From a virus: a DNA stretch of 64,000 bases. A program made the translations under genes and the position numbers. The notes below the pieces were generated by a model. It was not told where the DNA came from, did no database searches, and saw only the letters and a program-made list of their open reading frames with translations. Each line of letters opens with the position of its first letter. The first letter of the stretch is position 1. Positions 4,178-25,230 of this stretch are shown here, one piece after another. The stretch lies in the IMG/VR virus record IMGVR_UViG_3300025812_000003. One strand, written 5' to 3'.

Positions 4178-4230
4178 AGGTGTGGACGAACGCACCATGG
4201 GAAACGAACGGAAGCCGTGAGGGGGGGGCA

Positions 4231-7625: not shown

Positions 7626-7831
7626 ACATGCCGACGACCAAGGGTCCGATGTGGGTCATATCCCAGGATCGGGTGCAGCTCTGGAACGGGGACGTGAAGT
7701 TCTACGACGTGCCCAATCCCTGCAAGTTCGACCTGCCGAACAGGCCCCTGCTGCCCGAGGAGGCGGAAGGGGGGCCCGACGTTTTTTTGCCTGCCTGTAA
7801 GGGCTCCACGTCCCTGTCGTACACGTTGTAG
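7622..7831 (+). CDS. Hypothetical protein overlapping the 3' end of the giant ORF
   Basis: ATGA overlap with the previous gene; convergent overlap at 7702-7831. Confidence 0.35.
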   Translation: MNMPTTKGPMWVISQDRVQLWNGDVKFYDVPNPCKFDLPNRPLLPEEAEGGPDVFLPACKGSTSLSYTL

Positions 7832-10800
7832 TCCGTCCCGCCCTTCCGCCACGTCACGGTCAGCAGCCTTTCGGCACCGCCGTGGAACTCCCTGCTCTGC
7901 TCCGGCGTCAGCCTGCGGACGGCCTTGACGACGCCCCTCATGCCGTCAGCCTTCCGGACCACCTCGCTCCCCATGTCCCCCGGCCTGGCCAGCGACGGGT
8001 CCGCCAAATAAATGCGGGACGGGTCGAACACCGCCACCTGGTCGCCATCCAGGAGGCGTCGGATGCCCATCCCCTTGTACCACACGGCGTCGAACCTGGA
8101 CTTGAGGCTGTCGGTCAGCATCTTGGTCGCCGCCACCCGGTCGACCCTGGCGACCTCCGGGCTGTACCCGTTCTTGATCCACCACTTCATCATGGTGTTG
8201 GGGGAGCCGAAGTTGATGGTCTCCAGCCTCGGGACGTCGAGGTAGTAGGACCTGAGCCCCCTGGTGGTGCCGCCGTTGAACGCCTTGGCGATGGCCTTGC
8301 TGGTCGTGAAGTAGATGCCATACCCAAGGTGGTGGACCGGGGCTGGGAGCCCGAGGGCATAGTCCGTCTTCCCCTCGTACCCATGCTGGATTTCCGCCGA
8401 GTTGGCCTCCCCCTCGAAGACCTTGAACCCCTCCCTGTCGATGCCCGCGGCGGCCTGCGGGGTGGTCCCGTGCCATACCGGCCCGAACATGCCGCGGTCG
8501 ACGGCATCCTGCGGGGAGACGGTGCGGTCGGCGGGGAAGGCGAGCTTGGTTGCCGACCCCGTGATCCCCCCCATCGGGCTCCTGACCCATTCGGCGGCGC
8601 GCTCCACAGTGGCGTCCCTTATCGTCCCCCTGCCGTACAGCGTCACCTCTACGATCGCGCCGGCCGGCAGCCTGGCCAGCGCCAGCTCCACCGTCTTGCG
8701 GGCCTTGGCGTACGCCTCCATCTCCCACTTGTCGTTCTTCCCCCAGACCTTCCTGACCGCCACGTGGCCCTTCTCCAGGGCCGCCCCCATCGTCGCCTCC
8801 TGGTCCAGGTAGCCGAGCCCCTCGTCCTTCCAGACCGGCCCCACAAGGCCGAAGTCCACCGCCGAGTCCCCGTGCCCAGCCTCCGCCATCTGGCGGTCGT
8901 CGTACTCGTGCCAGCGCCCCCCGGCCTCCAGCCAGCCGCTCCTCTGGAACGGGGCAAGCTTGGGACGCCTTGCCGCGGCCGTCTTCTCGGGCCCCCACAC
9001 GCTTTCGTAGGCGTCCTTGAGCGGCACCGGGAGGCTGCGGCGGGAGGGGCTCTCCATCTCCCTCGGGTAGTTCCGCTCCATGAACCTGACGAGGTCGTCC
9101 CCGACGAGCGTGATGTCCGCCGCAACGTCCTCCTCGGAGAAGTAGTCCCCCGGCTCCAGGCCAAAGGGGAGGTCGTAGTCGACGTTCCTCTCCCCGCGCA
9201 GGCTCTGGACCTCCGGCCCGGCGTGCCTGTCCTCCCCGAGGTACCGCTGTATGGGCCCGTCCAGGTCCGCCACCACGATGGTGAGCTGCCCGTGCCTCCT
9301 GATGTCGTCCGGGGTGGGGTCGTGCCCCACCGCCCTGCGAACCTTCGACCTGATCCAGCGGGGCATCTCGTCGAAGTACGCCGCCCCCCCTCGGTCCTTG
9401 ATTTCCTGTATGGCATCCTCGCTATCCGTCGCCCCCTGCAGGCACTCCTCCACCCACTTGCCCATCTGGGCCCGTACACCCTGTTCGACGATGGAGGCGT
9501 CCTCGTCGGCGGTCCCGGCATGGAACAGGACCATCTGGCTGCCGGGGTCCACGGACCTGATGATGCGCTCCGCCTCCTGCCAGGTGCCGGAGGCTAGCTT
9601 GAGGAAGGGCCCGCCATGCTGTGTCGCCGTTTTCCCTTCTTCCTCGTCGAGGGCCTCAAGGCATTCCCTCGATGCCAACAGGATGTCGTCCCCGTCCGGG
9701 TAGTTGTCGGGGATGATCCAGCCGGGCATGCTGGAGTTCCGCATCGCGTCGACGATGTCCTCGGAACCGTATGCCTCCATGTTGACGCCAATCATCTCGC
9801 AGAACTTTTCCATTTCCTCCTTGCCGTCGATGCGGGGGAGTCTGATGGGACAGATGACCTTGTACCGGAGGACCTTGCCGCTTTCCTCCCCGCCGTGCCA
9901 GTCCTGGAAGTGCTCGGCGACGGACTCCGACGTGCTGAACCAAGCGGGCATCTCGATGCCGGACGGGTCGAACCTCTGCGAGGTGCCATGGTAGAGGACG
10001 GTGCCCCTGGGGAGGACCTGAGTCTTGCGCCAGCGCCGCCACCATTCGCCCGCCGCCGCCTTGCGCAGGGCGGACCCGTCGAACACGTAGACCGACTCGG
10101 GCTGGCCCCTCCCCTCGTCCAGCCACACGGCCTTGCATCCCCTTGCCTTGGCGTCCTGCACGGCGACGTCTATGGCGTCGGGGTCCCCGGCATACGGCGG
10201 CGCGGCGGGGTGGAATATGCCGTCCTTCCTCATCCTCGCCCGCCTGAGCTCCTCCGTCCTGCCGGTCTGCGTGAACTGGGCCGCCCACGCCTCGTCCGGG
10301 GACCAGTACCTCCCGCCCTTCTTGGACCCCCCACCCTCCCCCCTGAAAAGCAGGATGGTGCCGTCGTCCGCCGCCTTGCCGGGCTGGTGGGCCTGCTCCA
10401 CCACGAATTCCCCCCCGTACCTCTCCTTGAACTGGGCAAAGAAGTCGGGCGGTATTTCCCCGTAGTGGATCACCAGGACGGTGGGATTCTTCCAGTCGTC
10501 CCCCTTGTACTTCCTCCCGTCCCTCACCTCCACGACCGCCAGGATGCGGTTGGAGCCGGAGTAGCCTATGGGCTCCGTGATCCTGGCGGTATCGCGGTTG
10601 TATGCCTCGCCGGGGCGCAGCGGGCGGGCGAACTGGCGAAGCGCCCTGGTGATTTTCTCCACGGCGTCCCTGAAGGCCGCCTCGCCCTCCTCCGGCGAGG
10701 GGATGAGCGCCTGGACGTCCGGTATGCTGTCGTACTCCACGTAGGGGAACGCCTTGTGGTAGGCGTGGCGCAGGTCGTAGGGCTTGGACCTCTTGGCCTC

Positions 10801-13800
10801 GTGGGCGGCGATGCGCAGGAGGGCGGCCTCCCATGCCTCCGGCAACAGGGCGCGCAGGCGCTCCTCCATGCCGGGGTGCAGGCTGCCCTTGTCCTCGCCC
10901 GGCATCTTCCACTTGAATGCCAGGCCCCGGACGGCGTCCTCGACGTACTTCCGCCTCTCGGCGTCGGCGAACTCCTTCCACGACCCGTCCTTGCCCAGGA
11001 AGGTGGGGAGGGAATAGTAGGTGTTGTCGCTCAGGCGTCCCAGCGGATGGCTGAGGTAGAAGACCACGTCGTCCTCGTCCAGGTACATGGTGTTGGGCTG
11101 GAGCTCCATGCAGACGACGACCTCCCGCCCCTCCTCGTTGTGGTCCTTGGGGGCGCTGGCGGCGGTCATGAGGTTGCGGGCGACGTACGTCCCCCCGTAG
11201 CTCACCCGGCTGACGCTCACGGCGCTGGCGGCGGCATCCTCCCCCCAGTTCCTCTCCTTCGGGTCGGGGATCAGCCCCTGCTTGAGGATGCTGCGCAAAT
11301 TCTTGATGCTGCTGCCGTGGTACCAGACGGACTTGGGGGCGGCGAGCTTGGGCGGGATTGGCTTTTGGGTCGAGATTGCCTCGGCGACGGCCTTCGTATC
11401 GTAGAATTCCACCCCCGTTACCGCCGTCGCGGGAATCGTGCCCTCCAGGCTGCTCACGTCGGGGTTATGCCTGTCAAGGAATTGCACGCCCTTTGTCGGT
11501 CTGAACAGGACTAGTGCAACCCGCTTAGAGTTCTCCTGCCGGGCCTTCCGCAGGCCCCATCCGAGGGCCACCCTCCTGTCGGTGCTGATATAAATATGCC
11601 CCCCGCCTGCACCGCCCGTATAATCTGCCTTCAGGGCCGGAGGAACCAATCCATCTTTCTCGATATCCTTTGCGGCAGCGGGCGTCGTCCCGTGATACCA
11701 GATGGACTCGGGAGCGGCGGTCTTGGAGGCGGTCATCCTCCTATCGGACGGGTCGAACCCCTTGCTGTCGACTGCCTTGATCTGATCGGGGCTGAAAACA
11801 ACGTACTCGACGTTGGACTTCCCCCATTGGTCTTTGACCCGGTTAATGATGCCGTCGTATCCCGCGCCCCTGATCCTCTCCGGATGGCGGGAGATGATCT
11901 GCTGCAGGCTCTTGCTTCCATCGGCGGAGCGGAGGTCCTTATAGATTCCCTCGACGCCCCATCCCAGCCTTTCCAATTCCTCCCTGGGACCAAGAAGGCC
12001 GGAATCAAGGAGCGCCTGGGCATTCGCCTTCGTTTTGACCGTCAGGTCCAGCGGGTTCTCGATGCGCAGGTACACCTCGAACACATGCGGGTCGTAGCCG
12101 TCGATGATGCGCTTCTGCCCGAGCATCGGGTCGTATTCCACGCGATAGGTGAACCGCTGGGCAAAGTTCTGGTCCGGAGTGAAGAAGAACCCCACCTTTG
12201 CGTCGGCGGCCTCGGTGTTCCTCCCCTGCATTCCGGGGTTGAACGCCTCGAAGGGCACCCGCTTGCGGTGTATGCCGCCCATGACCTCCTCGGGGATGAC
12301 CCCGGGGTTCTGCTTGTCGAACCTCTCCATGGTATCGACCCATCCATCGAGGCGCTTGTCCACGTCCTCGTCGCCCGGATAGGCCTTGCCCATATGGTCG
12401 AAGGCTAGGCGCACCGCCTTCTTGAGGTCGTCCACCCACTCGGGGCGGTAGTTCTTCCCCCTGGGGCTACCGTGGTACATGACCATGGGGGTGCCGTCCG
12501 GGTTGACCACCTTGGACTTGCCGAACCAGGCCCTGAACTGGGGCGAGTCGGTTACGGCGACGGTGGTCTTGGATGCGGTCACGTGCTCGTACTTGGGCCT
12601 CTGCCACCTCGACGACCCCCTCAGCTTCCAGCCGGTGACGCGGACCGGGGCGTCGTGCCTGAGCGTCACCTCCTTCTCGTCGGAATGGCGGAGGTTCGCC
12701 CAGACGGTGCTGGCCCAGTCGACGTCCTTGAGGGCCACCTCCCCCCGGAAGACGTAGGTCTTCAGGCCCCTGCTGTACTCCGTCCAGTCCTCCTTCTCCC
12801 ATCCCCCCTCCTCGGCGAGGACGGAGTCGGCGTCGTAGGGGACGGCATGGCCTTCGTCCCACGTCCAGTAGATGCCGAACCCCCGCGTGTAGGGATAGCG
12901 GTCCGGCATCTTAACCGCACGGTAGACGACGAGGGGATCGGGAAGCCCGTTGCAGAACTCCCTGAACTCCTGGTACCTGCCGAGGTAGGCATCGCCGTAC
13001 CAGCGCTCGTACTCCTCGGCAGCGGGAAGCTGGGAGGGCATCCCGACCCCCGCCATCAGGGAGTTGTACGACTCCTTCCCAGCGGCGGCCTTCCCGGTCG
13101 GCAGCCCCTGGTACGAGTCCACTGGGACGTACGCCAATATGGCCTTGTCCCCCCTGATCTTGCCTGCCGCCACGCGGTGGTTGCCGTCCCGTATTCTCCC
13201 GTCGCCATCCATCACTATGGGCGGAATGGGGGTTTCCATCCTTGCATACTTCTCCGCAAGGGATGGATCGTAGTCGTCCCCCGCTTCGAGCTTTTGCAGG
13301 GACACCTCCTTGAGGACGTAGTCCCCCCCTGCATCCAGGCCGACCAACTGCTCGGCGTAGGTCCTGTCCTTCCACTCCGGGTGCTGGGACATGACGTAGT
13401 CGACGACCGCCTGACCGCCGATCCTGTCCCCGGCCCGGGCGGCGACCCTGGTGCTCCCGCCCAGGTTTTCCAGCCATTCTATGGCAACCTCGGGGCCGTC
13501 GAACTCCCGGTACATCTTGAGGTAGCCCCCCCATTCCAGGGTTATGGGGACGCCTGCGGGAGGGGGATGATCCCTCAGCAAGGAGATGACGTCCTGCTTC
13601 TGGCCGAGGTTCAGGACTTCCATGTAGATTTTCTCCCGGGCGGAGCACCCGCACCTGGAGAGCCAGTCTGTGGTCACCCTTATCGCCCCCTCCGCCGCCC
13701 ACGCTTCGAGGCCGAGGCTCTTGGCCAGCAGCGGATGGGTGTCCAGCTCCTTGGTGAAGGGATGCAGGACGCCGCCGACCACGAGGCCTCCAGCCTTCCA

Positions 13801-16800
13801 GAATTCCTCGTCGCCTGCGGGGATCGAAGGGTCGGCGGCCGTCTTGGAGGGGTCGAAATCGGGGTTGAAGACGACTTTCCCCTTTGGGTCCCTCACCCAG
13901 ACGACATTCTCGCCGCCCTTCGCCTCCCCTATGTACTCGAACAACTTCCTCAGGGTCACCCTCCCGCCCTGTACTAACCAGCCGGACAGGTCGCTGCGCT
14001 GGTGGACTATGTTCAGGATCTTGTCCACGACCTGGAGCTTCGCCTCCGCGGTCTTGGCGTCGTAGAGGTCGAGCGCCAGCGTAGTAAGCGGCCCAGTGGC
14101 GAAGTCGCTCAGCCTCCAGCTTCCCTCCTCGTCGTCGAAGAAGCTGGGAAGCAGGTCGAAGTACCCTTCCGGGACCTCATGGTCGAGGACCTCCGCCGCG
14201 AACTCCTCCGGGCTCCACGACGTGTGCCTGCACAGGATGGTGTTGACCTCGATCTTGAGGATGTTCTCCGTGACGATGTCGGCGATCTCGTCCATGCCCG
14301 CCTGGTCCCGGACGATCCCCGCCTTGGCGTAATCCTTCCATATCTTCATCAGCCTGGCGGCCGGGACGACCCTCCACCGCTGGCGGTAGTTCTTTTGGAA
14401 CAAGTGCTTTTTGGTGGGGCGCTTGCCGGGCATGGCATAGTCGATGCCGTCCCCGACCACCTTCTTGTACTCGTCCAGGATTTCCCTGGCCACCTCGTCC
14501 CGCAGGTCGGCGTCGGCGTACATGGCGGCATCGGTAAAGGCCGCCTTGGAGGCGGATGCGGTGACATACTGGTAGGGCGGGGCCTTCCATCCGTCGCCTT
14601 CGAACCTCGGATTGAACCATCTCGTAAGGCGTACCCTGGCCCCCCGCCTGAGCCGGATTTCCTTTTCCTCGGACGAGGTTACTATGGCGGTATACCCCCA
14701 GTCCACGTCCTCCAGGGCGACCTCGCCCTGGAAGATGTGGCGGACGCCCTGCCGCTGGGCCGCCGGGCCATACGGCCTGGCCTTGTCGAAGTCCCACGTC
14801 CAGCATACCCCGAAATCTTGGCGGCGGGGCAGGACGGACTCGGAGTCCAGCTTCAGCGCCCTGTAGACGACGAAAGGGTTGGGGAGCTTGAGGAAGAATT
14901 TGCGGGTTTCCAGGTACTCTTCCAATGCCTCGGGCGAAAGGTACTCGCGCATCACATCGACGTCGGGCAACTGGCTGGGGACCCTCACCCCCTCGAACAG
15001 GGACATCAGGTCGCCAGCGGCTTCTTTGGGTGTGCTGGCTGTGACCGCCATCCCCCCCGACAGCCGCGTCCACCTGCCCCCGCCGCGGGCCTTCCACCCG
15101 TCGACCCTGACCCTGGCCCCCTCCTTCAGCCTGACCTCCTCCTCCTCGGGGATGACGGTGTTCAGATAGGCGGTGGGGACCCAGTCCACGTCGTCGGGCG
15201 ACTCGATCACGCCGCGAAAGACGAAGACGTACTTGCCGACCAGGTCCTCGCCGATGTAGGAGCTATCCTCGGACAGCGACCAGTAGACGCCGAAGCCCCC
15301 CTTGTTGACCTCCTTGCCCCAGTCCGGGGAGTCGAAGGACAGGGCCCTGTATGCCGCCAGCGGGAACCTGAGCGCCCCGAGCCTTTCCCTGGCGGCCTCC
15401 CACTGCTCCGTGAGGATGCGGAGGGCCGTCTGGTCCTCGTCTTCCTTCCTTGTCTGGTTGCGTTGCGATACCGGAATCCTGCTGACGGCATCCTCCACCT
15501 TGCCCCAGTCCACCAGCTCGTGGGGCTCGACGTGCCCCCATTCCAGGACCTCGGCGACGGACGGGAAGCCGGTCGGCCCCGAGGCCTTCTTGGGGCCGCG
15601 CACCACCGATAGCTGCATCGGGTCAACCTTGCCCCTGACCCTGGCCCCATGCCCGATGGCGAGGCTCTCGGCGAGCGTGTCGCCGACCTCGGCGTTCCCG
15701 TACATCCGCTTGTTGCGGAGCTGGTCGGGGTCCGGGAGCAGGCGGCGGGCGGTGACGGTGACGGCATAGACGGCTATCGGGGTAGTGGGGCCGTAGGCCA
15801 GCTCCCCGAATGTCTTGGCATGCCCGGGGAACACGGACAGGTAGACGAAGCCCGGGGAGGACTGGATCGACTTCGCCCGTCCGGCGCTGGTCGGGAGGAG
15901 GCCCTCCTCCATCACGGGATGGCCGGCGTCGGTGCCGTGGTAGAGGGTCACGAACCGGTTGGCGTCGCTGCGGAGGAACTGCCCCAGCTCCTTAATCCTC
16001 CTGGGGGTCGGCATGCCGTAGAATACGTCGTGCCACCTGGGGTCGGAGGAGAAGTCCACCGCCCCCTCCCAGGCCGCCGTCTTCGCGGCGGCCTCCTTCT
16101 TCCTCTCCGAGTGCGGGTTCTCCACCAGCTCGAAGAAGTCCGCCGACCTGTCCGTCAGGGGGTCGTCGTAGGACCAGCCCTTGTCGCCGATGGCCTCCTT
16201 CTTGCCGAACGCCCTCTTCCAGCGCGAGAGCCACTTGCCCGCGTCCCACGGGCTGTCGAACCTCTTGTAGACCGAATGCCCGAGGCTGCGATCCTGTATG
16301 AGCTCGATGGCGACCTCCGCGTCGTGGTTGATGCTGTCCAGGGCCTCAAGGATGCGGTGGCGCGGGCCTGCGGCGTCCGTCGCCTCGAAGCTGAGATGGC
16401 GGGAGGTGCCTATGACCCTGACGAGCCCTTCGTCCACCGCTTCCTCCAGATTTTCATACCCCCACCGCTTGGCATCCTCGTTGTGGGCCGTGCTGTATAC
16501 GAATGACCCGTCGAGCTTTATCCATCCATTCGATATTTCCTGCAGGCCGCCCACCTTGGCCACGCTGGATGCCGTCCGGTCACGTTGCTGGGTCACTTTA
16601 GTACTGGGAACGCCCACATAGGCGCGAATGGTCTCGTCGCCCCTGTCCCAGGCCGCCGTCGCCCGGTGCATGCCGTCCACGATGCGCCCCCCTATCACTA
16701 CAATCGGGGGAAACTCGGCGTCCATGTCTTGGTATTCCCGGATAGCCTCCAGGTCCTTAGAGCCTGTAGAGGTCGTGGAACAGTCCGGTATGTACAGGTC

Positions 16801-19800
16801 CTCAAGGGGGATGTCCCTGAGGACGTATCGGCTGGCGCTTGATTCGACCAGCTTCAAGAGGTAGTCCAGCCCTCCCGCCTTGCCCTCTACCCCTCCTCTA
16901 TGCAACTTTGCGATGTAGGAGGTTATCCATCCGGCATCGGCCTCCGGTGGATAGAAGGAATCGCCCGCCTGCCTGGGCATGGTACTTCTCTGCGGCGTGA
17001 CGGTCGCGAACTTGTCGTCTTTTGCTTTGCACAGGATAGACGAGGTCTTCATAGGCTTTAAGACGATGACATCTTCTTCCTTTACCTCGATGGGATAGCC
17101 GTATTCCCAGCTATACGCCTCCGCTTGGTATAGACCATCGACTCTAAACCTTCTTGAGGGGATGCGAATGACAACGGGCTTTCCTCCTTTGGATTTAATG
17201 AAGTTCCTGGCGTACCAAGCGGCAACTGGTTCGGTTGAAAACCACGTTCCGGCCCGCAGGCCCACCTTGAGGATATCCCCCGTGTATGTGCTGGTGGTGC
17301 CGTGGTACAGGAATTCCGGCAATGCCTTGGCCGCTTGCTTGACCAGGGTGCTTCTCTGCGGCGTGACGGTCGCGAACTTCCCGCCGTCCGCCTCGCCCAG
17401 GACGGTGCTGATGCCGTCGTTCATGTATTCGTCGTATATCCTGAAGTGGCTGTCCCACCATTCGTCCTCGGGCTCGTCGGCGGCGTTCCTGCACCCGATG
17501 GTATGTGTTTCCACCCACCATCCGTCGACGACCTTGGAAGTGCCGCACGCCTCCGCGGATGCGCCCGCCAGCATCCTCCCGGCCTCCTCCAGGACGTGCG
17601 GAGGAGGAGGCGAGCTGGCGACCTTGCGGTGCTGGCGGACCTCGATGGCGGGGTCGTAGCCGTCATGGTCGACGAGGCTCCGCCTGACCTCCTCGGCGTC
17701 CGCCGCCACGGCGGGAAGGCTGTCTATCTTCTGCCCGTCGAGGTAGACGTCCCACCAGGGAGCGGCGTCCTCCCGCAGGATCATGGCGTGCTCCATCATC
17801 CTCTTGGCCGCAACCTCCTCGGGATCGGTCATGTACCTCCGGAAGGACTCCTCGTCCACGAGCTTCGCCAAGTCGGTCTTGACGACCTGCCTCTTTCTGA
17901 CCGCGTGGAGGATGTGGGCCCCCTCCTCCAGGATGGTCCTGATCATGTCCTCGGGGCCGAGCCTGGGATTGACGAACATCGCGGGCTCCCCGCGGAACCT
18001 GCCCGCCCCCCCGAAGAACTTCACGTTGGGGTTCTCCACGACCTTGCCGCCCTGTATCGGGCGATCCAGGGCCACGACGGGGACGTCCAGCACCCCCTCG
18101 TACAGCGCCCTGACCTTCCTGCCGACCAGGAGGTCCCCGAGGGTGCCCGCGATCTCCCCGAGGGGGCTCACGGCTATCCTGCGGACGAACCCGTAGTCAA
18201 ACTTGGATGGGAAGGCCGTCCGGCCGGGCTGCCCCATGTACCTGTCCCCCGCTTCCTTCGGAACGGAGGCGGCCTTGCTCGTTTCCACCTCGGCATGGTC
18301 GGGGCCCGCCGCTGGCCCCACCGGGGCTTCCTGCACCTCGACCTTCTTCTTGTACAGGGAACCCCTGTCGGTGCCCTCCGCCTTGCAGATCGGGCAATGG
18401 CGGCTGAGGCCGCCAGCGTCCTTGAGTTTTCGCTCGAACCCCCTGGTGACCCCCTCCCATATCCTCGCCACGGTGAAGCTGATGCCGCGCTCCTTGGCGA
18501 CCTCCATCAGCCTCACCCAGGACGTGCCCTCGTAGTGCCTCTTTATCCTCGCCATCGGGTCGATGGCGAACCCGCAATAGTGCCTGGTGGCCGCCTGCGA
18601 CCCGTGGGGGATGCCGCCGCCAAGGAAGTGGAGCAGGTAGACCGCCCCTAGCTTGCCTTCGTCGGCCGGTGCCCTGGCATACTTGTCCTTCTTCATCTCG
18701 CGGAGCAGCTTGTCAACGTATACCTGGGTGTCCACGGGCTTGCCCACGTTCGTGACCTGGGACGGGTCGAACACGACGAACTCCATGTCCGTAAGGGCGG
18801 CTATGTCGGTATAGATAAGCCCGTCATGGCCCGCCCTCAGCGCCATGCGCGCCACGGAGCGATCCACCCTGGCCCATTCCTCCTGCGTCTGGGGCGGGCC
18901 CGTGTCGTCGGAGAGGGCCTTGTCAAGGTCCTCCATACCGGGAAGGCCGGTCAGCTTTTTGGTGGCGTCCCATTGGTCCTCCGCCACCAGCGGGTTCGCC
19001 ATGCGCAGCGTCGCCACGACGTAGTGCGTCCCGTATTCGGGAGCGGGATCCTCCGAGAAGAACGCCCCTCCCTCCCCCCACTTTATCCTTCCATCGGCCC
19101 CCGTGACGTGGTATCCCTTGAAGATGGCGGGCCTTCCGGTGCGGAACCGTCCCTTGTCGTACTTGAAGGCCGTCATCGTCCTCCATGCCTTCGGGGCCGT
19201 CCTCCATCCATAGCCTCCCTTCTTCCATGCCACGATGAGGGGATGGACGCCCTCCTTCAGGCGAATCTCCCGTTCCTCCTCCCCCGTGGAAGGGGCCATG
19301 TTGGCCTCGAACGTGCCCTCCCAGTCGATGTCGTCCCTGCCCACCTGGGCCTTCAGCAGGATTTTTTCCGTCCCCAGGCCGAAGCTTCCCCAATGGGCCT
19401 CGGCGGCGGCCTCGTCCCACGACCAGAAGATTCCGATCTTCTTGGGATTGACGGCCTTCCTTCCCCCGACCAGGGACAGCATCCGGTAGACGGTCAGGGG
19501 GAACGTCCATCTCCCGTGCTGGCGCAGCAGCTCGTCGTAGCGGCCCTTGAGGTGCTCCTCGGCGTTCCCGTAGATCCACTTCGCCTGCTCCTCCTCGGGA
19601 AGGGCGTCGAACTCCCTCGTCTCGTCGACGTCGGACGGCTCCCACTGGTCCCACGAGTCCACGTCCCGCACCATCCCCTCGATGCCGCCGTGCTGGCGCT
19701 TCCATTCCTCCCATGACGGCATCCCCTCCATGATCCCCGCCGTCTTCGGGTAGAGTGCGCCCTCGTCGATGTAGTATCCCCCGTCGTCCCCTTCCCTTTC

Positions 19801-22800
19801 CTCCGGGTCGGTGAGCGGCCTGTCGGCCTCCCCAACGTACCCCTCCGGCGTCATGGCCCACATCGCGTCCTCGGTCAGCCTCGTCCACTGTCTGCCGTCC
19901 CAGACTTGCAGCCGGGCGGCGGGGATGCTCCTCTCGGTGAAGAAGGCGTCGGCGACGGCGTCGCCTGTCCCCACTTCGTCGGGCTGGACCTTCAGGCGCT
20001 TTGCCTCCTTGGTGCGGAGGATCACGGGGACGAGGCCATCCTCGACCGGGCTGTCGGAATTGTGGTATGCCCACTGGACCGCCCGCTGGTACCAGAAGCC
20101 CACCCCGCGCCATTCGGTCAAGAAGCTCCTTCCCTTCGTGTGCCAGCCATAGAGCCCCCCGATGCTCGCCGGGTGGCCGGTTTCAAGCCCGAGCCAGATG
20201 ATGTCCTCCAGCCGGTTGAAGTAGGTCACGTGGTAGAGCCAGTCGCCGGTGGCCGCCGTCTTTGCCTGTTCCTCCAGCTCCTCCAGGGAAAGCCCCGTCC
20301 TGTTCCCGTCGATGCACTCGGGCTGGGTCCCGTACCCGCCGATGGCCTCCCCCTCGCCAAGGTCCGGGAACTCGTTCTCGCGGTGCGGCGTCTGCTTGTG
20401 GGAGGCCGTGACCATCTTGTTCATCGTCCTGAAGTCGTTGTCCTTCGGCTCCTCGATGCCAGTCAGCCGGATCCTGGCCCCGGGCACCAGGCGTATCTCG
20501 TCCTCGTCGGGGTCCTTGGCGTTGGCATGCAGGGTGCCCTCCCAGTCCACGTCGTCCTCGCTCAGCACCTCGGCCCGCAGGGTGACGATCCCCCCTTCCT
20601 CCCCCCCGACGCTCGGCGTCCATATCGACGACGGGCCCCAGTAGGACTGGGCGCTGTCTACGTTGTCGCTCCAGTATATCCCCACGTTTTCCAGGTTGAC
20701 TTTCTTCCCGGCAGGCACCTCCAGTTGCCGGTAGACCGTCAGGGGGAACTTTATGGAGTTGAGGTACTCCACTTGGTCCGGAAGGGCCCATTCCCGGATT
20801 TTTAAGTCAGCGCCTGCACTCAAGCCAAGGCCCTCCAGGTATTTCCTGGGCGAGCGGGGCATCTCGACCCTCCGCCTGGCGGACGCCGTGACGGGCGCTT
20901 TCGGGGCGAGGAGCGGGCTCCCCGGCTTGGGCTCCTTGCCTGCGGTCGGCGCGGGCACGAGCCACCTGCGGTACTGCTGGAAGTTGGCGACCGCCCAGTC
21001 CACCGCGTCCTGGAGGCGTTCCGCCTCGAACACGGGCCTCCCGTTGCCCCCCTCCGGCAGGCACCATTCCCCACCTCTCTCGTGGATGGGAACGATGTCC
21101 CTTGCGTCCCTGCCCCAGAAGATGACTTGGTCCTCCTCGTCCCCGTAATGGTGAATCCTGATTCCAGATGCCCTGAAAAGCACGGCATGCTTGCCGTATT
21201 TCCTTTCGATGCGCCCCGCCTCGCCTGCCGGGACGGCGAAGTTGTACCCTCCGGTCTTGGCCTTGTCGGTGAAGTAGGTGGTGAGCCCGAGGCGGGCCAG
21301 GTCCCACATCCCCCTCGTGAACCCGTGGAGGGATATTTCGCCGGGCTCGTCGGTCTTGTGGACGAGCCACTGGTTCTTGACGATGCCCTCGTATTCCATG
21401 TACATGAAGGACGGGGCGTCCATGGGATCATCGTCCACGGCCCTCGTTCCCTCGTCGCTCCTCAGGAACTGCTCGCACATCGCGGGCGGCAGGCCGGAGA
21501 ACATGTCGTTGTCGATGAGCTCGTCCAGGTCCTTGGGGGCTTCCCAGCCCTCGGGCAGCTCCTGCCCGGATAGCCAGTCGAAGAAGCGATGCGGGAACTG
21601 GCGGGCCAGCTCCTCGCCCTTTTCGGCGTCCGTCATCGTCAGGTAGCCTTTCAGCCACGCGAGGTCCTGGCGCACGAACGCCTTCTTTAGGCTCCCCACC
21701 TTTGCTCCGTCCGGATTGCACTGCGGGCAGGCGCAGCACGGGCACTTAGGGTCGCCGCAGAAGGCGTGGTACTTCTCGTGTCCCGGCTGTCCTGGCCGGA
21801 CGACGTTCACGTCCGGCTTCCCGAACTGGTCGTGCGTCCCGTCGATAACGGTTCCGTCCTTGAGGACGTTCCATACGTGGTCGAGATGCCCGAAGTTCGG
21901 CCTCCGCCCGTGTGGGGCGGGAATGCCATCAGGAAGGTAGAAACCGCCTTCGATGCCCCAGCCGAATTTCTTGGACGCCGCCTCCGACACGAAGCCGCAT
22001 TGCCCTTCGCTGGCCGCCGCGGAGGCGCTCTCGTCCATGCGTATGCTCCCCCGAATCCTGCGGAGGGCGTCCAGCACTTCGGGCGTCGGCATCGTTTCCT
22101 TCCCGCTGGCCGTAATGCTAAGGTCATCCGGATCGAATGTCCCGGTGTTCCTGTCGGCGGACTTGACTTGGCTGGGGCTGAAGATAACATAAACGTCGCT
22201 TTGAGTCGCCCCGTCATAGACGTCCCTGGCGATGATGCCGTCCCGCCCGTTCTTCTTTGCCCAGTCGAACTCCGCCTTGCGGGGGACTATGCCGTCGAGC
22301 ACGAGCGGGTTTTCGATCTTGAGGTACACCGCCATGACATGGGTGTCGGTGCGAAGCTTCCTGTTGTACATCCGGGCTTGGCTCTTGGCCTCTTCCTCGG
22401 CCTTCTCGATGGTGGGGTAGGGGCCGACCGAGAAGATCGGCTCCTCCCGGAGGGTAAAGACCGCCGCATAGAACTCTCCGTCCTTGCCGTATCCCTGAAT
22501 GCTTGCCTCGTCCGCCTTCTTCTTGGGGCCCGAGTCAGAGAAGAACCTGGCATTGTCCTTGCTGGACGTGAACCAGATTCCCTTTTCGACACCCGCCGCA
22601 CCGGCCCACGAAGTGCCTGCCATGCCCAGGTCGAACGACGACACCCACGGGGACTTGCTGCCATGGTAGACGACCAGCGGCCTTCCCGCTGCATCCACCA
22701 CCCTGGAGTTTCCGAACCACGCGTCCAAGGCTGGCGTGCGGATCGGCCTTGCCGCCGCCTTTTTGATTCCCTCCGTACGGTAGGGCGGCACCCTGGAGAT

Positions 22801-25230
22801 TCCCTTCTTCACCCCCTGCCACCGTGCGGTCGGGGAGATGCGCTTCTTGAGGTAGGGCAGGAGGTCCTTGTACCGGTAGCGCTCCACGGCGCTTATGTGC
22901 TGGGGGCCGACCGGCCCGCGCTTGAGGTACACGTCGATTTCGTCGTCGCCCAATCCTACCCTCGGCTGGAGGTCCATCCCCGCTCCCCTGGGGTCGTCTA
23001 TGCGGACGAGGAACACGTCCGGCATCCTCCCGGGCTCCTTCTCGGGATCGATGCCCTCCTTGAGGCCCTTGCCCAGGGCATCGCCGAGGGCATAGTATAT
23101 GGCCAGGCCCTTGTCCGGGGTGGCGTACGCCGTCCCCCAGAACTTGCCGGGCACGAGGCCCTTCTCCTTTATGGAGTAGGCGGCATCTTCCGACGTCCCG
23201 TGCCAGGCCGTGCCCACATTGCCCGCCCTTCCCGCCGCTTGTTTGTTCTCGGGCGCGAACACGGGCTTGAAGACGTTGAGCTCGATGCTTATCGGGACGG
23301 TGCCCTGCCCGACGAACCTCTTGTAGTTGCTCGGGCTGAACAGGACTATGGAGTCGAACCCCCGTTTCTCCGCCTCCTGCTTCATCCTGGCGTCCAGGAA
23401 GAACCTTGCGGCCACGCCAGCATCGTCCGGGATTCCCCCGAGGCCGAGATCCCGGAGGATGCTCTCCTCGTCCCCCACGAGGGGATTGGCCACGTGGACG
23501 TGGAGCGGGGCGTCTAACGGCCTGCCCCAGAACTCCGCCTCCCTGAAGGTGGAGGCGAGGAACTGCCCCCTCTTGCTATATGCCTTGGGGTCCTCGGGCG
23601 GGACATGCCACCAGTCCTTGGAGTTGATCCTGCGCAGGAGGGCGTCCATGGCTCCCCCGCCCGACGAGCTGGCCGTGACGGAGGTCAGCCATCCTTCCCG
23701 CACGTCGGGCTGCCCCCACATCTCGTCGAACTTGGCCTCCAGCTCCGGCCCCCTTGCGATTGCGTACCCGCCGTAGGGGGAGATGCCCGCCTTGCACAGG
23801 AACCTGCGGTCGGTCGTTTCGACGAGCTTGTACTGGCCCGGGTCCTGCAGCTTGGGGGTCGCCAGCAGCTCTTTCTGCTTCTGGGAGAGGTGGGCGGAAT
23901 ATTGCCACAGCCGGTTGTTGTTCCCGTAGGGATACCTGTGGAGGAGGACGTAGAACGGCTTCTCGTCGTATTCCACCACCATCGCTTGGTCGGATTTCTC
24001 CGTTACGAAGTCCTTGCCGTACTTGGCGTTCCAGCGGTCGGCGACTTCCTTCCAGGACCTCCCGTGCCCGCCCATGACGCCACTCAGCATCTTCACGGTC
24101 TGGGGGGTCATGCCCTCGTTGAGCTTTCCCTGCCAGTAGACGAGCATCTCCTCGTGGTGGGCAAGCTCATGGGCGAGGATGCGCCGAAGGGTTTCATCGT
24201 CCCCGCAAATAGATTTCTGGAGGGTGATGACGGTGTTGGGCTTTCCAATCGTCCACCTGCAATCCCCCAGCCAGCGGGACTTTATGTTGTTCACGACCTT
24301 GAGCTCGGGAACGGGGAGGTCCCCCCGGACGTCGGGCATCAGGGACGCGAGGACGTTCCTGACCTGCCCGTAGTCCATGGCCTTGGCTACTATGCCTTTT
24401 TGATTGAGGGACTTGCGCAGCTTGCCGCCCTCGCCCGTGGTGCCGCTGCTGGTTATCTTTTCGCCCGGGAACTCCTGCCCAACCTTCTCGTACATGGCGG
24501 TGGCCACGCCCTTGCGCCGCCAGGCGGGATCGACGAAGACGTACTGCACCCACACCTCGTCCCTGTATTCGGAGAAGTGCAGGTAACCCACCTTGACGCC
24601 CCGCCTCGTCTCCGTATGGCCGCCCTTGCCATCAGGGACGGACTTCCACGCCCCGGCGTCCTCCCCGGCCCATGCCGTGACCCTGCCGAAAAGCTCGTCC
24701 CTGTGGGCGTCCACGATTTCGAGCTGGCAGGTGAATGCGGGCGTCCCAGTCGCCTTTTTCGGGCGGGCGGGTTCCTGGGGGACGAGCCACTTGACCATCA
24801 GGGGGAGGGTGGGCTTCTCGCCCTCCTCGGCCCATTCTCCGCCTGCCATGCCCACGTGCTCGAAGCCGTGGCGTTCGTACCATTTGGCCAGGTTCATGCC
24901 CTTGAGCGCCCTAACGTTCTTCTCGTATATGCCGACCAGGAGGACGACGGCGTCGCATCCCATGCGCCTTGCCTGCCGGGTAAACCTTTCCAGCGTCTTG
25001 TTTCCCCAGCCCTCGCCGCGAGGGGAGGCGAACATGATGTCGATGACGCCTACCTTCTTGCCGGACAGCATCCGCACAAAGCCCTCGGGGTCGGAAAGGT
25101 GCTCGTTGTCGGCCCATGCCTCCAGGTCCGGGTCGTTTTCCAGGATTCCGCCGATTAGGTCGTAATGAGGCGTGTTATAACTGATTTCCTGCCATGCTGT
25201 CCTGAGGAGCGGGTTTTGTGCGATGCGCAT
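7702..25230 (-). CDS. Giant polyvalent polyprotein (5842 aa), about 34 modules, mostly ADP-ribosyltransferase-like
   Basis: Uninterrupted 17.5-kb ORF. Approximate modules: GNAT 24760-25194 and 24380-24750; SprT-like HELAH 23680-24378; GIY-YIG-like 18277-18669; TILEEGAH zincin-like 17626-18264; ParB-like 16579-16965 and 13093-13437; Cys-His-Asp-like 21692-22104; about 19 ART-like modules (YHG[TS], YHVT or VYR..YW[ST]..ExE). Confidence 0.9.
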   Translation of the reverse strand: MRIAQNPLLRTAWQEISYNTPHYDLIGGILENDPDLEAWADNEHLSDPEGFVRMLSGKKVGVIDIMFASPRGEGWGNKTLERFTRQARRMGCDAVVLLVGIYEKNVRALKGMNLAKWYERHGFEHVGMAGGEWAEEGEKPTLPLMVKWLVPQEPARPKKATGTPAFTCQLEIVDAHRDELFGRVTAWAGEDAGAWKSVPDGKGGHTETRRGVKVGYLHFSEYRDEVWVQYVFVDPAWRRKGVATAMYEKVGQEFPGEKITSSGTTGEGGKLRKSLNQKGIVAKAMDYGQVRNVLASLMPDVRGDLPVPELKVVNNIKSRWLGDCRWTIGKPNTVITLQKSICGDDETLRRILAHELAHHEEMLVYWQGKLNEGMTPQTVKMLSGVMGGHGRSWKEVADRWNAKYGKDFVTEKSDQAMVVEYDEKPFYVLLHRYPYGNNNRLWQYSAHLSQKQKELLATPKLQDPGQYKLVETTDRRFLCKAGISPYGGYAIARGPELEAKFDEMWGQPDVREGWLTSVTASSSGGGAMDALLRRINSKDWWHVPPEDPKAYSKRGQFLASTFREAEFWGRPLDAPLHVHVANPLVGDEESILRDLGLGGIPDDAGVAARFFLDARMKQEAEKRGFDSIVLFSPSNYKRFVGQGTVPISIELNVFKPVFAPENKQAAGRAGNVGTAWHGTSEDAAYSIKEKGLVPGKFWGTAYATPDKGLAIYYALGDALGKGLKEGIDPEKEPGRMPDVFLVRIDDPRGAGMDLQPRVGLGDDEIDVYLKRGPVGPQHISAVERYRYKDLLPYLKKRISPTARWQGVKKGISRVPPYRTEGIKKAAARPIRTPALDAWFGNSRVVDAAGRPLVVYHGSKSPWVSSFDLGMAGTSWAGAAGVEKGIWFTSSKDNARFFSDSGPKKKADEASIQGYGKDGEFYAAVFTLREEPIFSVGPYPTIEKAEEEAKSQARMYNRKLRTDTHVMAVYLKIENPLVLDGIVPRKAEFDWAKKNGRDGIIARDVYDGATQSDVYVIFSPSQVKSADRNTGTFDPDDLSITASGKETMPTPEVLDALRRIRGSIRMDESASAAASEGQCGFVSEAASKKFGWGIEGGFYLPDGIPAPHGRRPNFGHLDHVWNVLKDGTVIDGTHDQFGKPDVNVVRPGQPGHEKYHAFCGDPKCPCCACPQCNPDGAKVGSLKKAFVRQDLAWLKGYLTMTDAEKGEELARQFPHRFFDWLSGQELPEGWEAPKDLDELIDNDMFSGLPPAMCEQFLRSDEGTRAVDDDPMDAPSFMYMEYEGIVKNQWLVHKTDEPGEISLHGFTRGMWDLARLGLTTYFTDKAKTGGYNFAVPAGEAGRIERKYGKHAVLFRASGIRIHHYGDEEDQVIFWGRDARDIVPIHERGGEWCLPEGGNGRPVFEAERLQDAVDWAVANFQQYRRWLVPAPTAGKEPKPGSPLLAPKAPVTASARRRVEMPRSPRKYLEGLGLSAGADLKIREWALPDQVEYLNSIKFPLTVYRQLEVPAGKKVNLENVGIYWSDNVDSAQSYWGPSSIWTPSVGGEEGGIVTLRAEVLSEDDVDWEGTLHANAKDPDEDEIRLVPGARIRLTGIEEPKDNDFRTMNKMVTASHKQTPHRENEFPDLGEGEAIGGYGTQPECIDGNRTGLSLEELEEQAKTAATGDWLYHVTYFNRLEDIIWLGLETGHPASIGGLYGWHTKGRSFLTEWRGVGFWYQRAVQWAYHNSDSPVEDGLVPVILRTKEAKRLKVQPDEVGTGDAVADAFFTERSIPAARLQVWDGRQWTRLTEDAMWAMTPEGYVGEADRPLTDPEEREGDDGGYYIDEGALYPKTAGIMEGMPSWEEWKRQHGGIEGMVRDVDSWDQWEPSDVDETREFDALPEEEQAKWIYGNAEEHLKGRYDELLRQHGRWTFPLTVYRMLSLVGGRKAVNPKKIGIFWSWDEAAAEAHWGSFGLGTEKILLKAQVGRDDIDWEGTFEANMAPSTGEEEREIRLKEGVHPLIVAWKKGGYGWRTAPKAWRTMTAFKYDKGRFRTGRPAIFKGYHVTGADGRIKWGEGGAFFSEDPAPEYGTHYVVATLRMANPLVAEDQWDATKKLTGLPGMEDLDKALSDDTGPPQTQEEWARVDRSVARMALRAGHDGLIYTDIAALTDMEFVVFDPSQVTNVGKPVDTQVYVDKLLREMKKDKYARAPADEGKLGAVYLLHFLGGGIPHGSQAATRHYCGFAIDPMARIKRHYEGTSWVRLMEVAKERGISFTVARIWEGVTRGFERKLKDAGGLSRHCPICKAEGTDRGSLYKKKVEVQEAPVGPAAGPDHAEVETSKAASVPKEAGDRYMGQPGRTAFPSKFDYGFVRRIAVSPLGEIAGTLGDLLVGRKVRALYEGVLDVPVVALDRPIQGGKVVENPNVKFFGGAGRFRGEPAMFVNPRLGPEDMIRTILEEGAHILHAVRKRQVVKTDLAKLVDEESFRRYMTDPEEVAAKRMMEHAMILREDAAPWWDVYLDGQKIDSLPAVAADAEEVRRSLVDHDGYDPAIEVRQHRKVASSPPPPHVLEEAGRMLAGASAEACGTSKVVDGWWVETHTIGCRNAADEPEDEWWDSHFRIYDEYMNDGISTVLGEADGGKFATVTPQRSTLVKQAAKALPEFLYHGTTSTYTGDILKVGLRAGTWFSTEPVAAWYARNFIKSKGGKPVVIRIPSRRFRVDGLYQAEAYSWEYGYPIEVKEEDVIVLKPMKTSSILCKAKDDKFATVTPQRSTMPRQAGDSFYPPEADAGWITSYIAKLHRGGVEGKAGGLDYLLKLVESSASRYVLRDIPLEDLYIPDCSTTSTGSKDLEAIREYQDMDAEFPPIVVIGGRIVDGMHRATAAWDRGDETIRAYVGVPSTKVTQQRDRTASSVAKVGGLQEISNGWIKLDGSFVYSTAHNEDAKRWGYENLEEAVDEGLVRVIGTSRHLSFEATDAAGPRHRILEALDSINHDAEVAIELIQDRSLGHSVYKRFDSPWDAGKWLSRWKRAFGKKEAIGDKGWSYDDPLTDRSADFFELVENPHSERKKEAAAKTAAWEGAVDFSSDPRWHDVFYGMPTPRRIKELGQFLRSDANRFVTLYHGTDAGHPVMEEGLLPTSAGRAKSIQSSPGFVYLSVFPGHAKTFGELAYGPTTPIAVYAVTVTARRLLPDPDQLRNKRMYGNAEVGDTLAESLAIGHGARVRGKVDPMQLSVVRGPKKASGPTGFPSVAEVLEWGHVEPHELVDWGKVEDAVSRIPVSQRNQTRKEDEDQTALRILTEQWEAARERLGALRFPLAAYRALSFDSPDWGKEVNKGGFGVYWSLSEDSSYIGEDLVGKYVFVFRGVIESPDDVDWVPTAYLNTVIPEEEEVRLKEGARVRVDGWKARGGGRWTRLSGGMAVTASTPKEAAGDLMSLFEGVRVPSQLPDVDVMREYLSPEALEEYLETRKFFLKLPNPFVVYRALKLDSESVLPRRQDFGVCWTWDFDKARPYGPAAQRQGVRHIFQGEVALEDVDWGYTAIVTSSEEKEIRLRRGARVRLTRWFNPRFEGDGWKAPPYQYVTASASKAAFTDAAMYADADLRDEVAREILDEYKKVVGDGIDYAMPGKRPTKKHLFQKNYRQRWRVVPAARLMKIWKDYAKAGIVRDQAGMDEIADIVTENILKIEVNTILCRHTSWSPEEFAAEVLDHEVPEGYFDLLPSFFDDEEGSWRLSDFATGPLTTLALDLYDAKTAEAKLQVVDKILNIVHQRSDLSGWLVQGGRVTLRKLFEYIGEAKGGENVVWVRDPKGKVVFNPDFDPSKTAADPSIPAGDEEFWKAGGLVVGGVLHPFTKELDTHPLLAKSLGLEAWAAEGAIRVTTDWLSRCGCSAREKIYMEVLNLGQKQDVISLLRDHPPPAGVPITLEWGGYLKMYREFDGPEVAIEWLENLGGSTRVAARAGDRIGGQAVVDYVMSQHPEWKDRTYAEQLVGLDAGGDYVLKEVSLQKLEAGDDYDPSLAEKYARMETPIPPIVMDGDGRIRDGNHRVAAGKIRGDKAILAYVPVDSYQGLPTGKAAAGKESYNSLMAGVGMPSQLPAAEEYERWYGDAYLGRYQEFREFCNGLPDPLVVYRAVKMPDRYPYTRGFGIYWTWDEGHAVPYDADSVLAEEGGWEKEDWTEYSRGLKTYVFRGEVALKDVDWASTVWANLRHSDEKEVTLRHDAPVRVTGWKLRGSSRWQRPKYEHVTASKTTVAVTDSPQFRAWFGKSKVVNPDGTPMVMYHGSPRGKNYRPEWVDDLKKAVRLAFDHMGKAYPGDEDVDKRLDGWVDTMERFDKQNPGVIPEEVMGGIHRKRVPFEAFNPGMQGRNTEAADAKVGFFFTPDQNFAQRFTYRVEYDPMLGQKRIIDGYDPHVFEVYLRIENPLDLTVKTKANAQALLDSGLLGPREELERLGWGVEGIYKDLRSADGSKSLQQIISRHPERIRGAGYDGIINRVKDQWGKSNVEYVVFSPDQIKAVDSKGFDPSDRRMTASKTAAPESIWYHGTTPAAAKDIEKDGLVPPALKADYTGGAGGGHIYISTDRRVALGWGLRKARQENSKRVALVLFRPTKGVQFLDRHNPDVSSLEGTIPATAVTGVEFYDTKAVAEAISTQKPIPPKLAAPKSVWYHGSSIKNLRSILKQGLIPDPKERNWGEDAAASAVSVSRVSYGGTYVARNLMTAASAPKDHNEEGREVVVCMELQPNTMYLDEDDVVFYLSHPLGRLSDNTYYSLPTFLGKDGSWKEFADAERRKYVEDAVRGLAFKWKMPGEDKGSLHPGMEERLRALLPEAWEAALLRIAAHEAKRSKPYDLRHAYHKAFPYVEYDSIPDVQALIPSPEEGEAAFRDAVEKITRALRQFARPLRPGEAYNRDTARITEPIGYSGSNRILAVVEVRDGRKYKGDDWKNPTVLVIHYGEIPPDFFAQFKERYGGEFVVEQAHQPGKAADDGTILLFRGEGGGSKKGGRYWSPDEAWAAQFTQTGRTEELRRARMRKDGIFHPAAPPYAGDPDAIDVAVQDAKARGCKAVWLDEGRGQPESVYVFDGSALRKAAAGEWWRRWRKTQVLPRGTVLYHGTSQRFDPSGIEMPAWFSTSESVAEHFQDWHGGEESGKVLRYKVICPIRLPRIDGKEEMEKFCEMIGVNMEAYGSEDIVDAMRNSSMPGWIIPDNYPDGDDILLASRECLEALDEEEGKTATQHGGPFLKLASGTWQEAERIIRSVDPGSQMVLFHAGTADEDASIVEQGVRAQMGKWVEECLQGATDSEDAIQEIKDRGGAAYFDEMPRWIRSKVRRAVGHDPTPDDIRRHGQLTIVVADLDGPIQRYLGEDRHAGPEVQSLRGERNVDYDLPFGLEPGDYFSEEDVAADITLVGDDLVRFMERNYPREMESPSRRSLPVPLKDAYESVWGPEKTAAARRPKLAPFQRSGWLEAGGRWHEYDDRQMAEAGHGDSAVDFGLVGPVWKDEGLGYLDQEATMGAALEKGHVAVRKVWGKNDKWEMEAYAKARKTVELALARLPAGAIVEVTLYGRGTIRDATVERAAEWVRSPMGGITGSATKLAFPADRTVSPQDAVDRGMFGPVWHGTTPQAAAGIDREGFKVFEGEANSAEIQHGYEGKTDYALGLPAPVHHLGYGIYFTTSKAIAKAFNGGTTRGLRSYYLDVPRLETINFGSPNTMMKWWIKNGYSPEVARVDRVAATKMLTDSLKSRFDAVWYKGMGIRRLLDGDQVAVFDPSRIYLADPSLARPGDMGSEVVRKADGMRGVVKAVRRLTPEQSREFHGGAERLLTVTWRKGGTDYNVYDRDVEPLQAGKKTSGPPSASSGSRGLFGRSNLQGLGTS
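11315..11724. repeat. Imperfect 35-nt direct repeat (11315-11349 / 11690-11724) flanking one ART module
   Basis: 29/35 identity by hand alignment; offset 375 nt (125 codons). The copies encode KLAAPKSVWYHG and KTAAPESIWYHG. Confidence 0.75.
16985..17379. repeat. Exact 29-nt direct repeat (16985-17013 / 17351-17379) flanking one ART module
   Basis: CTTCTCTGCGGCGTGACGGTCGCGAACTT occurs twice, offset 366 nt (122 codons), each encoding KFATVTPQRS on the minus strand. Confidence 0.95.

Follow-up and report, generated by a model that had tools for sequence, protein, structure and literature searches.

A 5,842-residue polyvalent protein of a large phage with an array of predicted ADP-ribosyltransferase-fold modules from at least four sequence families

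What kind of protein is encoded by a single uninterrupted open reading frame (ORF) of 5,842 codons in an uncultured phage of peat and wetland, and what might the phage use it for? The question is raised by a 64,000-nucleotide stretch of the IMG/VR virus record IMGVR_UViG_3300025812_000003 (the window, meaning the whole stretch of DNA analyzed), in which this ORF (P0001) occupies positions 7702-25230 of the minus strand. An initial annotation had read about 19 ADP-ribosyltransferase (ART)-like domains of three types into its 5,842-aa product, hereafter the giant. As developed below, the giant is a phage polyvalent protein as Iyer et al. 2017 defined this class. We further consider it quite probable that it is a giant polyvalent effector of about 34 independently folding modules, with at least 17 ART folds in at least four families, which would be packaged, cleaved, injected and then modify its targets.

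An assembly or gene-calling artefact was ruled out by codon composition and independent contigs. The GC content at third codon positions (GC3) of the ORF is 0.87, typical of real genes in the GC-rich window (approximately 0.60-0.67). Gene calling on independent ENA contigs of 66,986 and 166,506 bp yields the identical 5,842-aa product, and a protein on a 180,344-bp ENA contig (P0152) is near-identical to it, differing at 2 residues; the phage contig measures at least 180 kb. The order of the giant gene and its two neighbors, InPase-JAB-giant, is the same on four independent contigs, and two of these carry the full 5,842-aa product. All 31-mers sampled from positions 12583-16083 were present in 20 peat or wetland metagenome runs (20 studies or samples), so that the sequence of this phage varies remarkably little from sample to sample. 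Because the full or near-identical product and the gene order recur on independent contigs, and the DNA in 20 runs, the giant gene is not an assembly artefact.

About 34 modules, connected by a short conserved linker, make up the giant. The module coordinates of the initial annotation held: all 19 intervals are in frame with the ORF and end at module boundaries or recurrent xTA[AS]/K[TAQ]A[AS] linkers. The linker, [KVMIRL][TAQ]A[ASGTF] (typical forms VTAS, KTAA and KAAA), occurs 30 times, versus 9.7 +/- 3 in shuffled sequences. The motif was noted at nearly every module boundary of the giant. Most of the other giants examined (P0153, P0154, P0029, P0138, P0155, P0024, P0093) also show a 3-4-fold enrichment of it, and it follows the type-c domain, described below, in 64 of 102 homologues. 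The linker thus looks like a conserved protease site, and this enrichment and placement support a conserved processing site. The ART motifs on which the annotation relied are likewise real and far above chance, with 11 hHG[TS]-type motifs observed versus 0.26 expected, five VYRxL versus 0.05 and five ExE[IV][RT]L versus 0.03. Internal BLAST comparisons revealed paralogy among five type-c modules, between two strong type-b modules and between two ParB-like modules that are not ARTs.

Graded evidence from Pfam, profile comparisons and two structure predictions supports assignment of 17 of the 19 listed modules to the ART superfamily: two exceed a Pfam cut-off, three have confident or moderate models, four are type-c paralogues of a folded copy and eight are placed at profile level. 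The other two (residues 518-662 and 5200-5415) resemble ARTs at the level of motifs. The three types of the initial annotation remain recognizable as types a, b and c, but the evidence supports at least four ART sequence families, namely ART-PolyVal (four modules), H-G-T (seven), R-[ST]-ExE (five) and a minimal R-S-QxE family (one), with module 5057-5199 falling between types a and b. In the giant, Pfam detects ART-PolyVal twice above cut-off, together with PARP and GNAT; the Alt/Mod and DRAT Pfam families are matched by no module.

The type-b modules are as follows.
Residues 824-1038 (22117-22761, minus strand): ART-PolyVal; PF18760 E 1.7e-18, 68.2 bits.
Residues 4217-4498 (11737-12582, minus strand): ART-PolyVal with an insert; PF18760 E 5.4e-19, 69.8 bits.
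Residues 2019-2185 (18676-19176, minus strand): divergent ART-PolyVal-like, supported by profile.
Residues 5560-5842 (7705-8553, minus strand): divergent ART-PolyVal-like, supported through orthologues.
Residues 518-662 (23245-23679, minus strand): claimed as type b; resemblance of motifs only (ANPL, GFDSIVLFSPS).

The gathering cut-off of PF18760 is 31.2 bits. The first two modules, which match each other at 99.6% in hhalign, do share the stretch F.AWFG.S.VV...G.P.V.YHGS that had been singled out beforehand (in 828-1038 and 4221-4498), and the first has 61 homologous segments in other polyvalent proteins. Module 2019-2185 scores below the PF18760 cut-off (E 0.004, 18.3 bits); it reaches 95.2% against module 824-1038 in hhalign and E 2.2e-6 with an iterated ART-PolyVal profile. 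For module 5560-5842 the match of its own sequence to PF18760 is weak (E 0.23, 12.7 bits), and five of six orthologous segments match positions 29-136 of the 140 in the PF18760 hidden Markov model (HMM), with E-values of 6.7e-7 to 2e-3 and up to 30.6 bits. The ART-PolyVal signature is H-aromatic-D/E, with H on strand 1, Y or another aromatic residue on strand 2 and D on strand 5. By sequence, the putative catalytic positions of the modules are YHGS, WFTS or FFFT, and SDVYVIF or VEYVVF; their strand positions were checked on the model of the related module 5057-5199 alone. Module 518-662 matched neither Pfam nor the iterated ART-PolyVal profile, gave 0.3% in hhalign against the H-G-T profile and no pairing of 20% or more with the other candidate ART modules, 824-1038 included, and had no homologues among 176 collected proteins.

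For type a, alignment A6 combines, in 51 rows, 44 homologous segments of other polyvalent proteins, collected starting from module 2631-2752, with seven modules of the giant. Because A6 includes modules added by hand, each module was tested singly by hhalign against a 45-sequence core without them; percentages below refer to this core profile unless another partner is named.
Residues 663-823 (22762-23244, minus strand): H-G-T; supported by profile (96.1%) and language-model look-alikes.
Residues 1657-1828 (19747-20262, minus strand): H-V-T; supported by profile (82.5%; 93.3% to 4628-4799 over 84 columns, 95.4% to 2631-2752; iterated profile matching 4628-4732 at E 2e-5).
Residues 2631-2752 (16975-17340, minus strand): H-G-T, seed of the type-a profile; supported; alone, it matches PARP (E 0.089) and Tpt1 (E 0.22) weakly.
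Residues 3050-3216 (15583-16083, minus strand): H-G-T; moderately supported (86.8% over 43 columns).
Residues 4499-4627 (11350-11736, minus strand): H-G-T; supported by profile (97.1%; 96.9% to 4628-4799 over 84 columns).
Residues 4628-4951 (10378-11349, minus strand): H-G-S module of about 170 aa, extended at its C terminus by a conserved part of about 150 aa; supported (95.6% for 4628-4799).
Residues 5057-5199 (9634-10062, minus strand): H-G-T, lying between types a and b; modeled as an ART fold (89.5%; PF18760 14.3 bits).
Residues 5200-5415 (8986-9633, minus strand): claimed as type a; motif-level resemblance (LFHAGT; 10%).

When A6 rows were scanned singly, the matches were to PARP (14 rows), Tpt1/KptA (11), ART-PolyVal (3), DUF3990 (2), Tox-ART-HYD1 (1) and exotoxin A (1), that is, to ART-clan families only, save for one stray match. 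Searched against the PDB, the A6 profile matched Tpt1/KptA best (E 1.3e-11), followed by diphtheria toxin (1.3e-5) and then exotoxin A, cholix, PARP10/14/15 and DarT1 (2.6e-3). If the assignments of the weaker modules reflected a chance resemblance of motif or fold, the true number of ARTs would be about eight. We regard this as very improbable, since eight non-ART control modules gave 0.3% or less in the same hhalign test, the 60 PDB matches listed for the type-a profile, of 103 in total, all belong to the ART superfamily, and both weak modules with confident models came out as ART folds.

Module 4628-4951 matches PARP (PF00644, cut-off 26.7 bits) at E 1.5e-6, with 28.3 bits within a long segment and 17.7 bits alone; the match is limited to HMM positions 49-98 of 199 (49-78 within the long segment). 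The H and Y are present, and the E was not located. Both halves of this module occur together in ten homologues. Look-alikes in the Atlas, taken as leads only, belonged to ART families in every named case for module 663-823 (Tox-ART-HYD1, PARP, Arr) and comprised 42 Arr-ms clusters at 0.94 and one DarT/PARP cluster for module 3050-3216. Single-sequence PDB searches with modules 663-823, 3050-3216 and 5560-5815 returned nothing useful.

Tpt1/KptA is a two-lobed enzyme whose N-terminal RNA lobe carries most of the Arg-His-Arg-Arg tetrad. Type a shares the pattern hYHGT...I..GL...G.Y[LF][ST] with Tpt1/KptA, PARP, diphtheria-toxin-type ARTs and DarT, and its profile matches the NAD+ lobe. It differs from Tpt1/KptA in that the match covers only Tpt1 residues ~87-178, the NAD+ lobe, the RNA lobe being absent, and in its linker-bounded modules of 120-170 aa; in Pfam scans it stays under the cut-off or scarcely reaches it. 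As the match starts at approximately residue 87-95 of Tpt1, in the NAD+ lobe only, type-a modules are not Tpt1 orthologues. The earlier comparison with T4 Alt/ModA/ModB and DarT/KptA is thus apt at the level of the superfamily and no closer: the giant has no Alt, Mod or DRAT Pfam match, its Tpt1 similarity is confined to one lobe and its DarT similarity is weak.

Type c is a family of its own. Of the six modules assigned to an R-S-E type, five are paralogues and the sixth, although of ART fold, belongs to a separate family.
Residues 1447-1606 (20413-20892, minus strand): type c, copy 1, paralogue of the folded copy, with R, WS and ExE all conserved.
Residues 1829-2018 (19177-19746, minus strand): type c, copy 2, paralogue.
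Residues 3217-3395 (15046-15582, minus strand): type c, copy 3, paralogue.
Residues 3396-3555 (14566-15045, minus strand): type c, copy 4, the folded copy.
Residues 4047-4216 (12583-13092, minus strand): type c, copy 5, with an insert, paralogue.
Residues 4952-5056 (10063-10377, minus strand): minimal ART-fold module of about 100 aa, separate family.

In an exhaustive search of 1.84 billion proteins, a profile of the five paralogues matched 2,069 representative proteins at an E-value of 0.001 or less; a word-indexed homologue search with the same profile found nothing. Many of these proteins are 1,000-5,000 aa long and carry 2-5 copies, and others are free-standing proteins of 130-240 aa. No Pfam family covers the 125 members analyzed, none of which has an ART Pfam match. 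Similarly, none of the 125 sequences matches an ART PHROG, and only four of the 125 match either of two unannotated PHROGs. Comparison of the type-c profile with PDB sequences returned only noise, and DRAT appeared for type c only as a language-model and fold look-alike. The fold was instead modeled with AlphaFold2 from a 125-sequence alignment, at a predicted local distance difference test (pLDDT) of 90.9. The core is only about 105 residues long, with R58 in strand 54-62, W78-[ST]79 in strand 77-79, and E123-x-E125 at the start of strand 125-128. R is conserved in 125 of 125 sequences, S/T in 100 (Ala occupying this position in 20% of the family), the first E in all 125 and the second in 124. 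Compared with 48,161 PDB representatives, residues 51-156 of the model had almost exclusively ART folds as best matches, the nearest being cholera toxin, LT, pertussis toxin and TreX, with Tne2, Scabin, Arr, PltA and pertussis S1 also among them; in a second structure comparison, 44 of 50 rows cover the 51-156 range and are ART-superfamily folds. Chain residues 1..146 of cholera toxin A1 align with 52..156 of the model, and R58 would lie opposite cholera toxin residue 7, which we take to be the catalytic arginine, provided that the first aligned residues are ungapped. On this model, type c carries the hallmarks of the R-S-E clade (Alt/VIP2, DraT, CT/LT/PT), in which an ART fold has Arg on strand 1, an S-T-S-like motif on strand 2 and [QE]xE before the catalytic strand; by sequence it is not a member of the curated R-S-E families (ADPrib_exo_Tox, DRAT and others). 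Like T4 Alt (and ModA/ModB), it is phage-encoded and has the same three signature elements. It differs in having no detectable sequence relationship to these proteins and in being a small core within a polyprotein, often repeated, whose nearest structures are not Alt.

Module 4952-5056 carries its own R / YWS / QxE signature and is not a paralogue of the five type-c modules. When residues 4952-5415 were folded with 27 sequences, it and module 5057-5199 came out as ART folds, as copy 4 of type c had done. For module 5200-5415 the same prediction yielded a poor model (pLDDT mostly 32-60) with no ART match. The nearest solved structure to module 4952-5056 is AcrIF11, an anti-CRISPR ADP-ribosyltransferase (PDB 6KYF, 8DWQ; bioRxiv 10.1101/2024.08.26.609590). 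The two have no sequence similarity, the AcrIF11 site being H/Y/D-E as opposed to R / YWS / QxE, and the module, unlike AcrIF11, is not free-standing.

Other parts of the giant, and the genes next to it, bear on how the protein might be used.
Residues 1-284: two GNAT-like modules, preceding the SprT-like module.
Residues 318-402, within module 285-517 (23680-24378): embedded HExxH, SprT-like Zn-peptidase region, Pfam E 0.005, below cut-off.
Residues 2753-2884 (16579-16974) and 3930-4046 (13093-13443): two ParB-like paralogous modules, 37% identity, E 5e-11.
Residues 1230-1446 (20893-21543): candidate twentieth ART module, conserved in about 20 other polyvalent proteins.
Positions 25340-25867, minus strand: Prok-JAB metallopeptidase-fold gene directly upstream of the giant, Pfam PF14464 E 1.6e-9.
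Positions 25937-26818, minus strand: InPase gene of the polyvalent-protein type, Pfam PF18823 E 1.1e-32.

The HExxH module recurs in over 20 other polyvalent proteins and is a candidate self-processing peptidase. A DGxHR motif in modules 2753-2884 and 3930-4046 was read as ParB/sulfiredoxin-like, and several related giants are annotated with PF02195 (ParB_N). Module 1230-1446 has invariant WLVHxTD, GGYNFA and QVIFWG motifs resembling an H-Y-Q ART signature; it gave 0.9% against the type-a profile and no PDB match, and may be an unrecognized twentieth ART or something else.

The chain of many ART effectors envisaged by the initial annotation agrees with a concept already published for phage polyvalent proteins (PMC5512222; PMC9503650). 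Head packaging, processing by proteases and injection with the DNA have been proposed for these proteins on the model of T4 Alt, and ARTs are their commonest protein-modifying domain, with up to 12 copies per protein, as in the P. aeruginosa prophage polyvalent protein WP_023121221.1 (Iyer et al. 2017, PMC5512222). The giant shares with this class, whose members come from phages, prophages and conjugative elements, a phage origin, shown by the genes in the window, and disparate domains in one ORF (GNAT, SprT-like Zn-peptidase, ART-PolyVal, PARP-like, two ParB-like and type-c ARTs), that is, many unrelated enzymatic domains per polypeptide. It also shares multiplied ARTs, two modules that are bona fide PF18760 members, and an InPase, here encoded next door. 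The giant differs in size, with 5,842 aa and about 34 modules versus the published 2-15 domains, and in drawing its ARTs from at least four families, R-S-E-signature ARTs included, instead of repeating one. Two kinds of observation touch on its presumed life cycle: a possible link to the virion (the giant has no MuF match, the neighboring InPase matches minor-head, virion and DarB-like PHROGs, and a portal gene lies 26 kb away) and candidate processing peptidases (the below-cut-off SprT-like region and the adjacent Prok-JAB gene).

For this giant we infer virion packaging, cleavage at the linkers, NAD+-dependent activity and diverse targets, in the following sequence. By analogy with T4 Alt, which is head-packaged and injected and served as the model, the protein would be made late and packaged in the capsid. 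Cleavage at the xTA[AS]-type linkers would follow, the possible enzymes being the SprT-like Zn-peptidase within the giant, the JAB protein encoded next to it and a head protease, and the pieces would enter the cell together with the DNA. With NAD+ as substrate, each ART module would then modify a host target of its own, protein or nucleic acid, by ADP-ribosylation, or else would consume NAD+, the outcome being host takeover and the disarming of defences early in infection.

Several results weigh against this proposal. Two of the 19 listed modules resemble ARTs in motifs only. No MuF or other known capsid-targeting domain was detected in the giant, and none of the listed runs containing window sequence is an RNA run. 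Foldseek returned nothing significant for the type-c model against the PDB (best E 0.067). Most matches of single type-a modules are confined to the N-terminal half, a strand-helix-strand unit (26-50 columns), and the type-a alignment shows no clear conservation at the third catalytic position; some modules may therefore be inactive or have a different chemistry. Finally, the nearest structural neighbors include IcmQ, which only binds NAD+, and the NADases or NAD+ phosphorylases MbcT, RES, Tne2 and Tse6; hence, transfer to macromolecules is not the only option.

The last of these results raises the possibility, which we judge unlikely but by some way the most credible of the alternatives, that many of the ART-fold modules are NADases, NAD+ phosphorylases or processors of signals derived from NAD+ or ADP-ribose, which would deplete NAD+ or destroy immune nucleotide signals. 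The NAD+-degrading neighbors (NatT in addition to MbcT, RES, Tne2 and Tse6), a RES cluster in the Atlas fold search and the polyvalent-type InPase next door, a domain that Iyer et al. link to nucleotide processing (PMC5512222), all speak for it. The R-S-ExE and H-Y-[ED] signatures and the nearest neighbors (cholera toxin, TreX, diphtheria toxin, ParT, AcrIF11) are, however, typical of transferases, and seventeen diverse copies fit many targets better than a single small-molecule substrate. Loss of activity could also be widespread, with a large share of the ART-like modules being catalytically dead and serving for binding, as decoys, as bulk inside the capsid or as parts of an ejection apparatus. 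We give this little credence, given that the R and ExE of type c are invariant across 125 sequences and the H is invariant in the type-a alignment, which argues for selection on catalysis. The packaged and processed multi-ART effector remains the preferred reading.

The rest of the window places the giant in a large tailed phage, with portal, DNA polymerase, clamp loader, primase pieces, UvsX-like recombinase and exonucleases among its genes. A bacterial toxin locus, also considered, was ruled out by this phage gene context. Genes with assigned positions are the following.
Positions 2105-3838, plus strand: Lon-like ATP-dependent protease, PHROG 4871 E 7e-72.
Positions 4942-6324, plus strand: tRNA nucleotidyltransferase of the CCA-adding type, E 6e-52.
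Positions 51524-54010: portal, approximately 26 kb from the giant ORF.
Positions 55022-58600: DNA polymerase.

The index of the sequence collection lists the identical JAB protein in 167 blocks, and the phage is therefore widespread. The sole GenBank phage match of the giant is to the soil jumbo phage Tunturiibacter phage Tunturi_5 (34% identity over residues 290-1040); this nearest cultured phage infects an acidobacterium. The matching protein, gp321 (PP885688.1, annotated as a MutT/NUDIX hydrolase), is encoded among head and tail genes, and the match spans the SprT-like and ART-PolyVal modules; at 1,362 aa, however, it shares a few modules and lacks the ART array. A scan of viral contigs with residues 4047-5202 found no relatives. 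Metagenomes also hold related giants of 3,900-5,500 aa, and module order is shuffled among related polyvalent proteins. On a 74,691-bp JGI contig (3300025419, locus L003) the ORF following JAB is called as 3,170 aa though the contig continues, and a relative on the contig of P0138 (ENA ERZ1426844) has adjacent giant ORFs of 3,938 and 3,912 aa carrying such arrays. Populations may differ in the module content of the array or in whether it is split.

Research on host takeover and anti-defence is turning rapidly to phage ARTs, T4 Alt/ModB and AcrIF11 among them. The giant is an extreme variant of the known polyvalent proteins, far larger and richer in ARTs than those published, and one of its ART families is uncatalogued. 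With it, the published ceiling for polyvalent-protein complexity roughly doubles, and R-S-E-signature ARTs are shown to occur in polyvalent proteins. A more ambitious proposal, on which we are close to undecided and lean slightly to the negative side, has three parts. Type c would be an undescribed R-S-E family with a core of about 105 residues, invariant R/W/ExE and more than 2,000 representatives, absent from Pfam, nearly absent from PHROGs and spreading through phage polyvalent proteins as a cassette that can be repeated. The giant would be a protease-processed effector polyprotein delivering about 17 NAD+-dependent enzymes from the capsid, the largest single-gene ART arsenal known. Some modules, such as the AcrIF11-like one, would be enzymatic anti-defence factors. 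The abundant, uncatalogued and very small ART family defined here could be expressed and assayed easily. Moreover, since a conserved linker marks where its modules begin and end, screens in laboratory strains for targets and for anti-defence activity could draw on the giant as a prepared set of some 17 compact candidate enzymes and about 17 other effectors.
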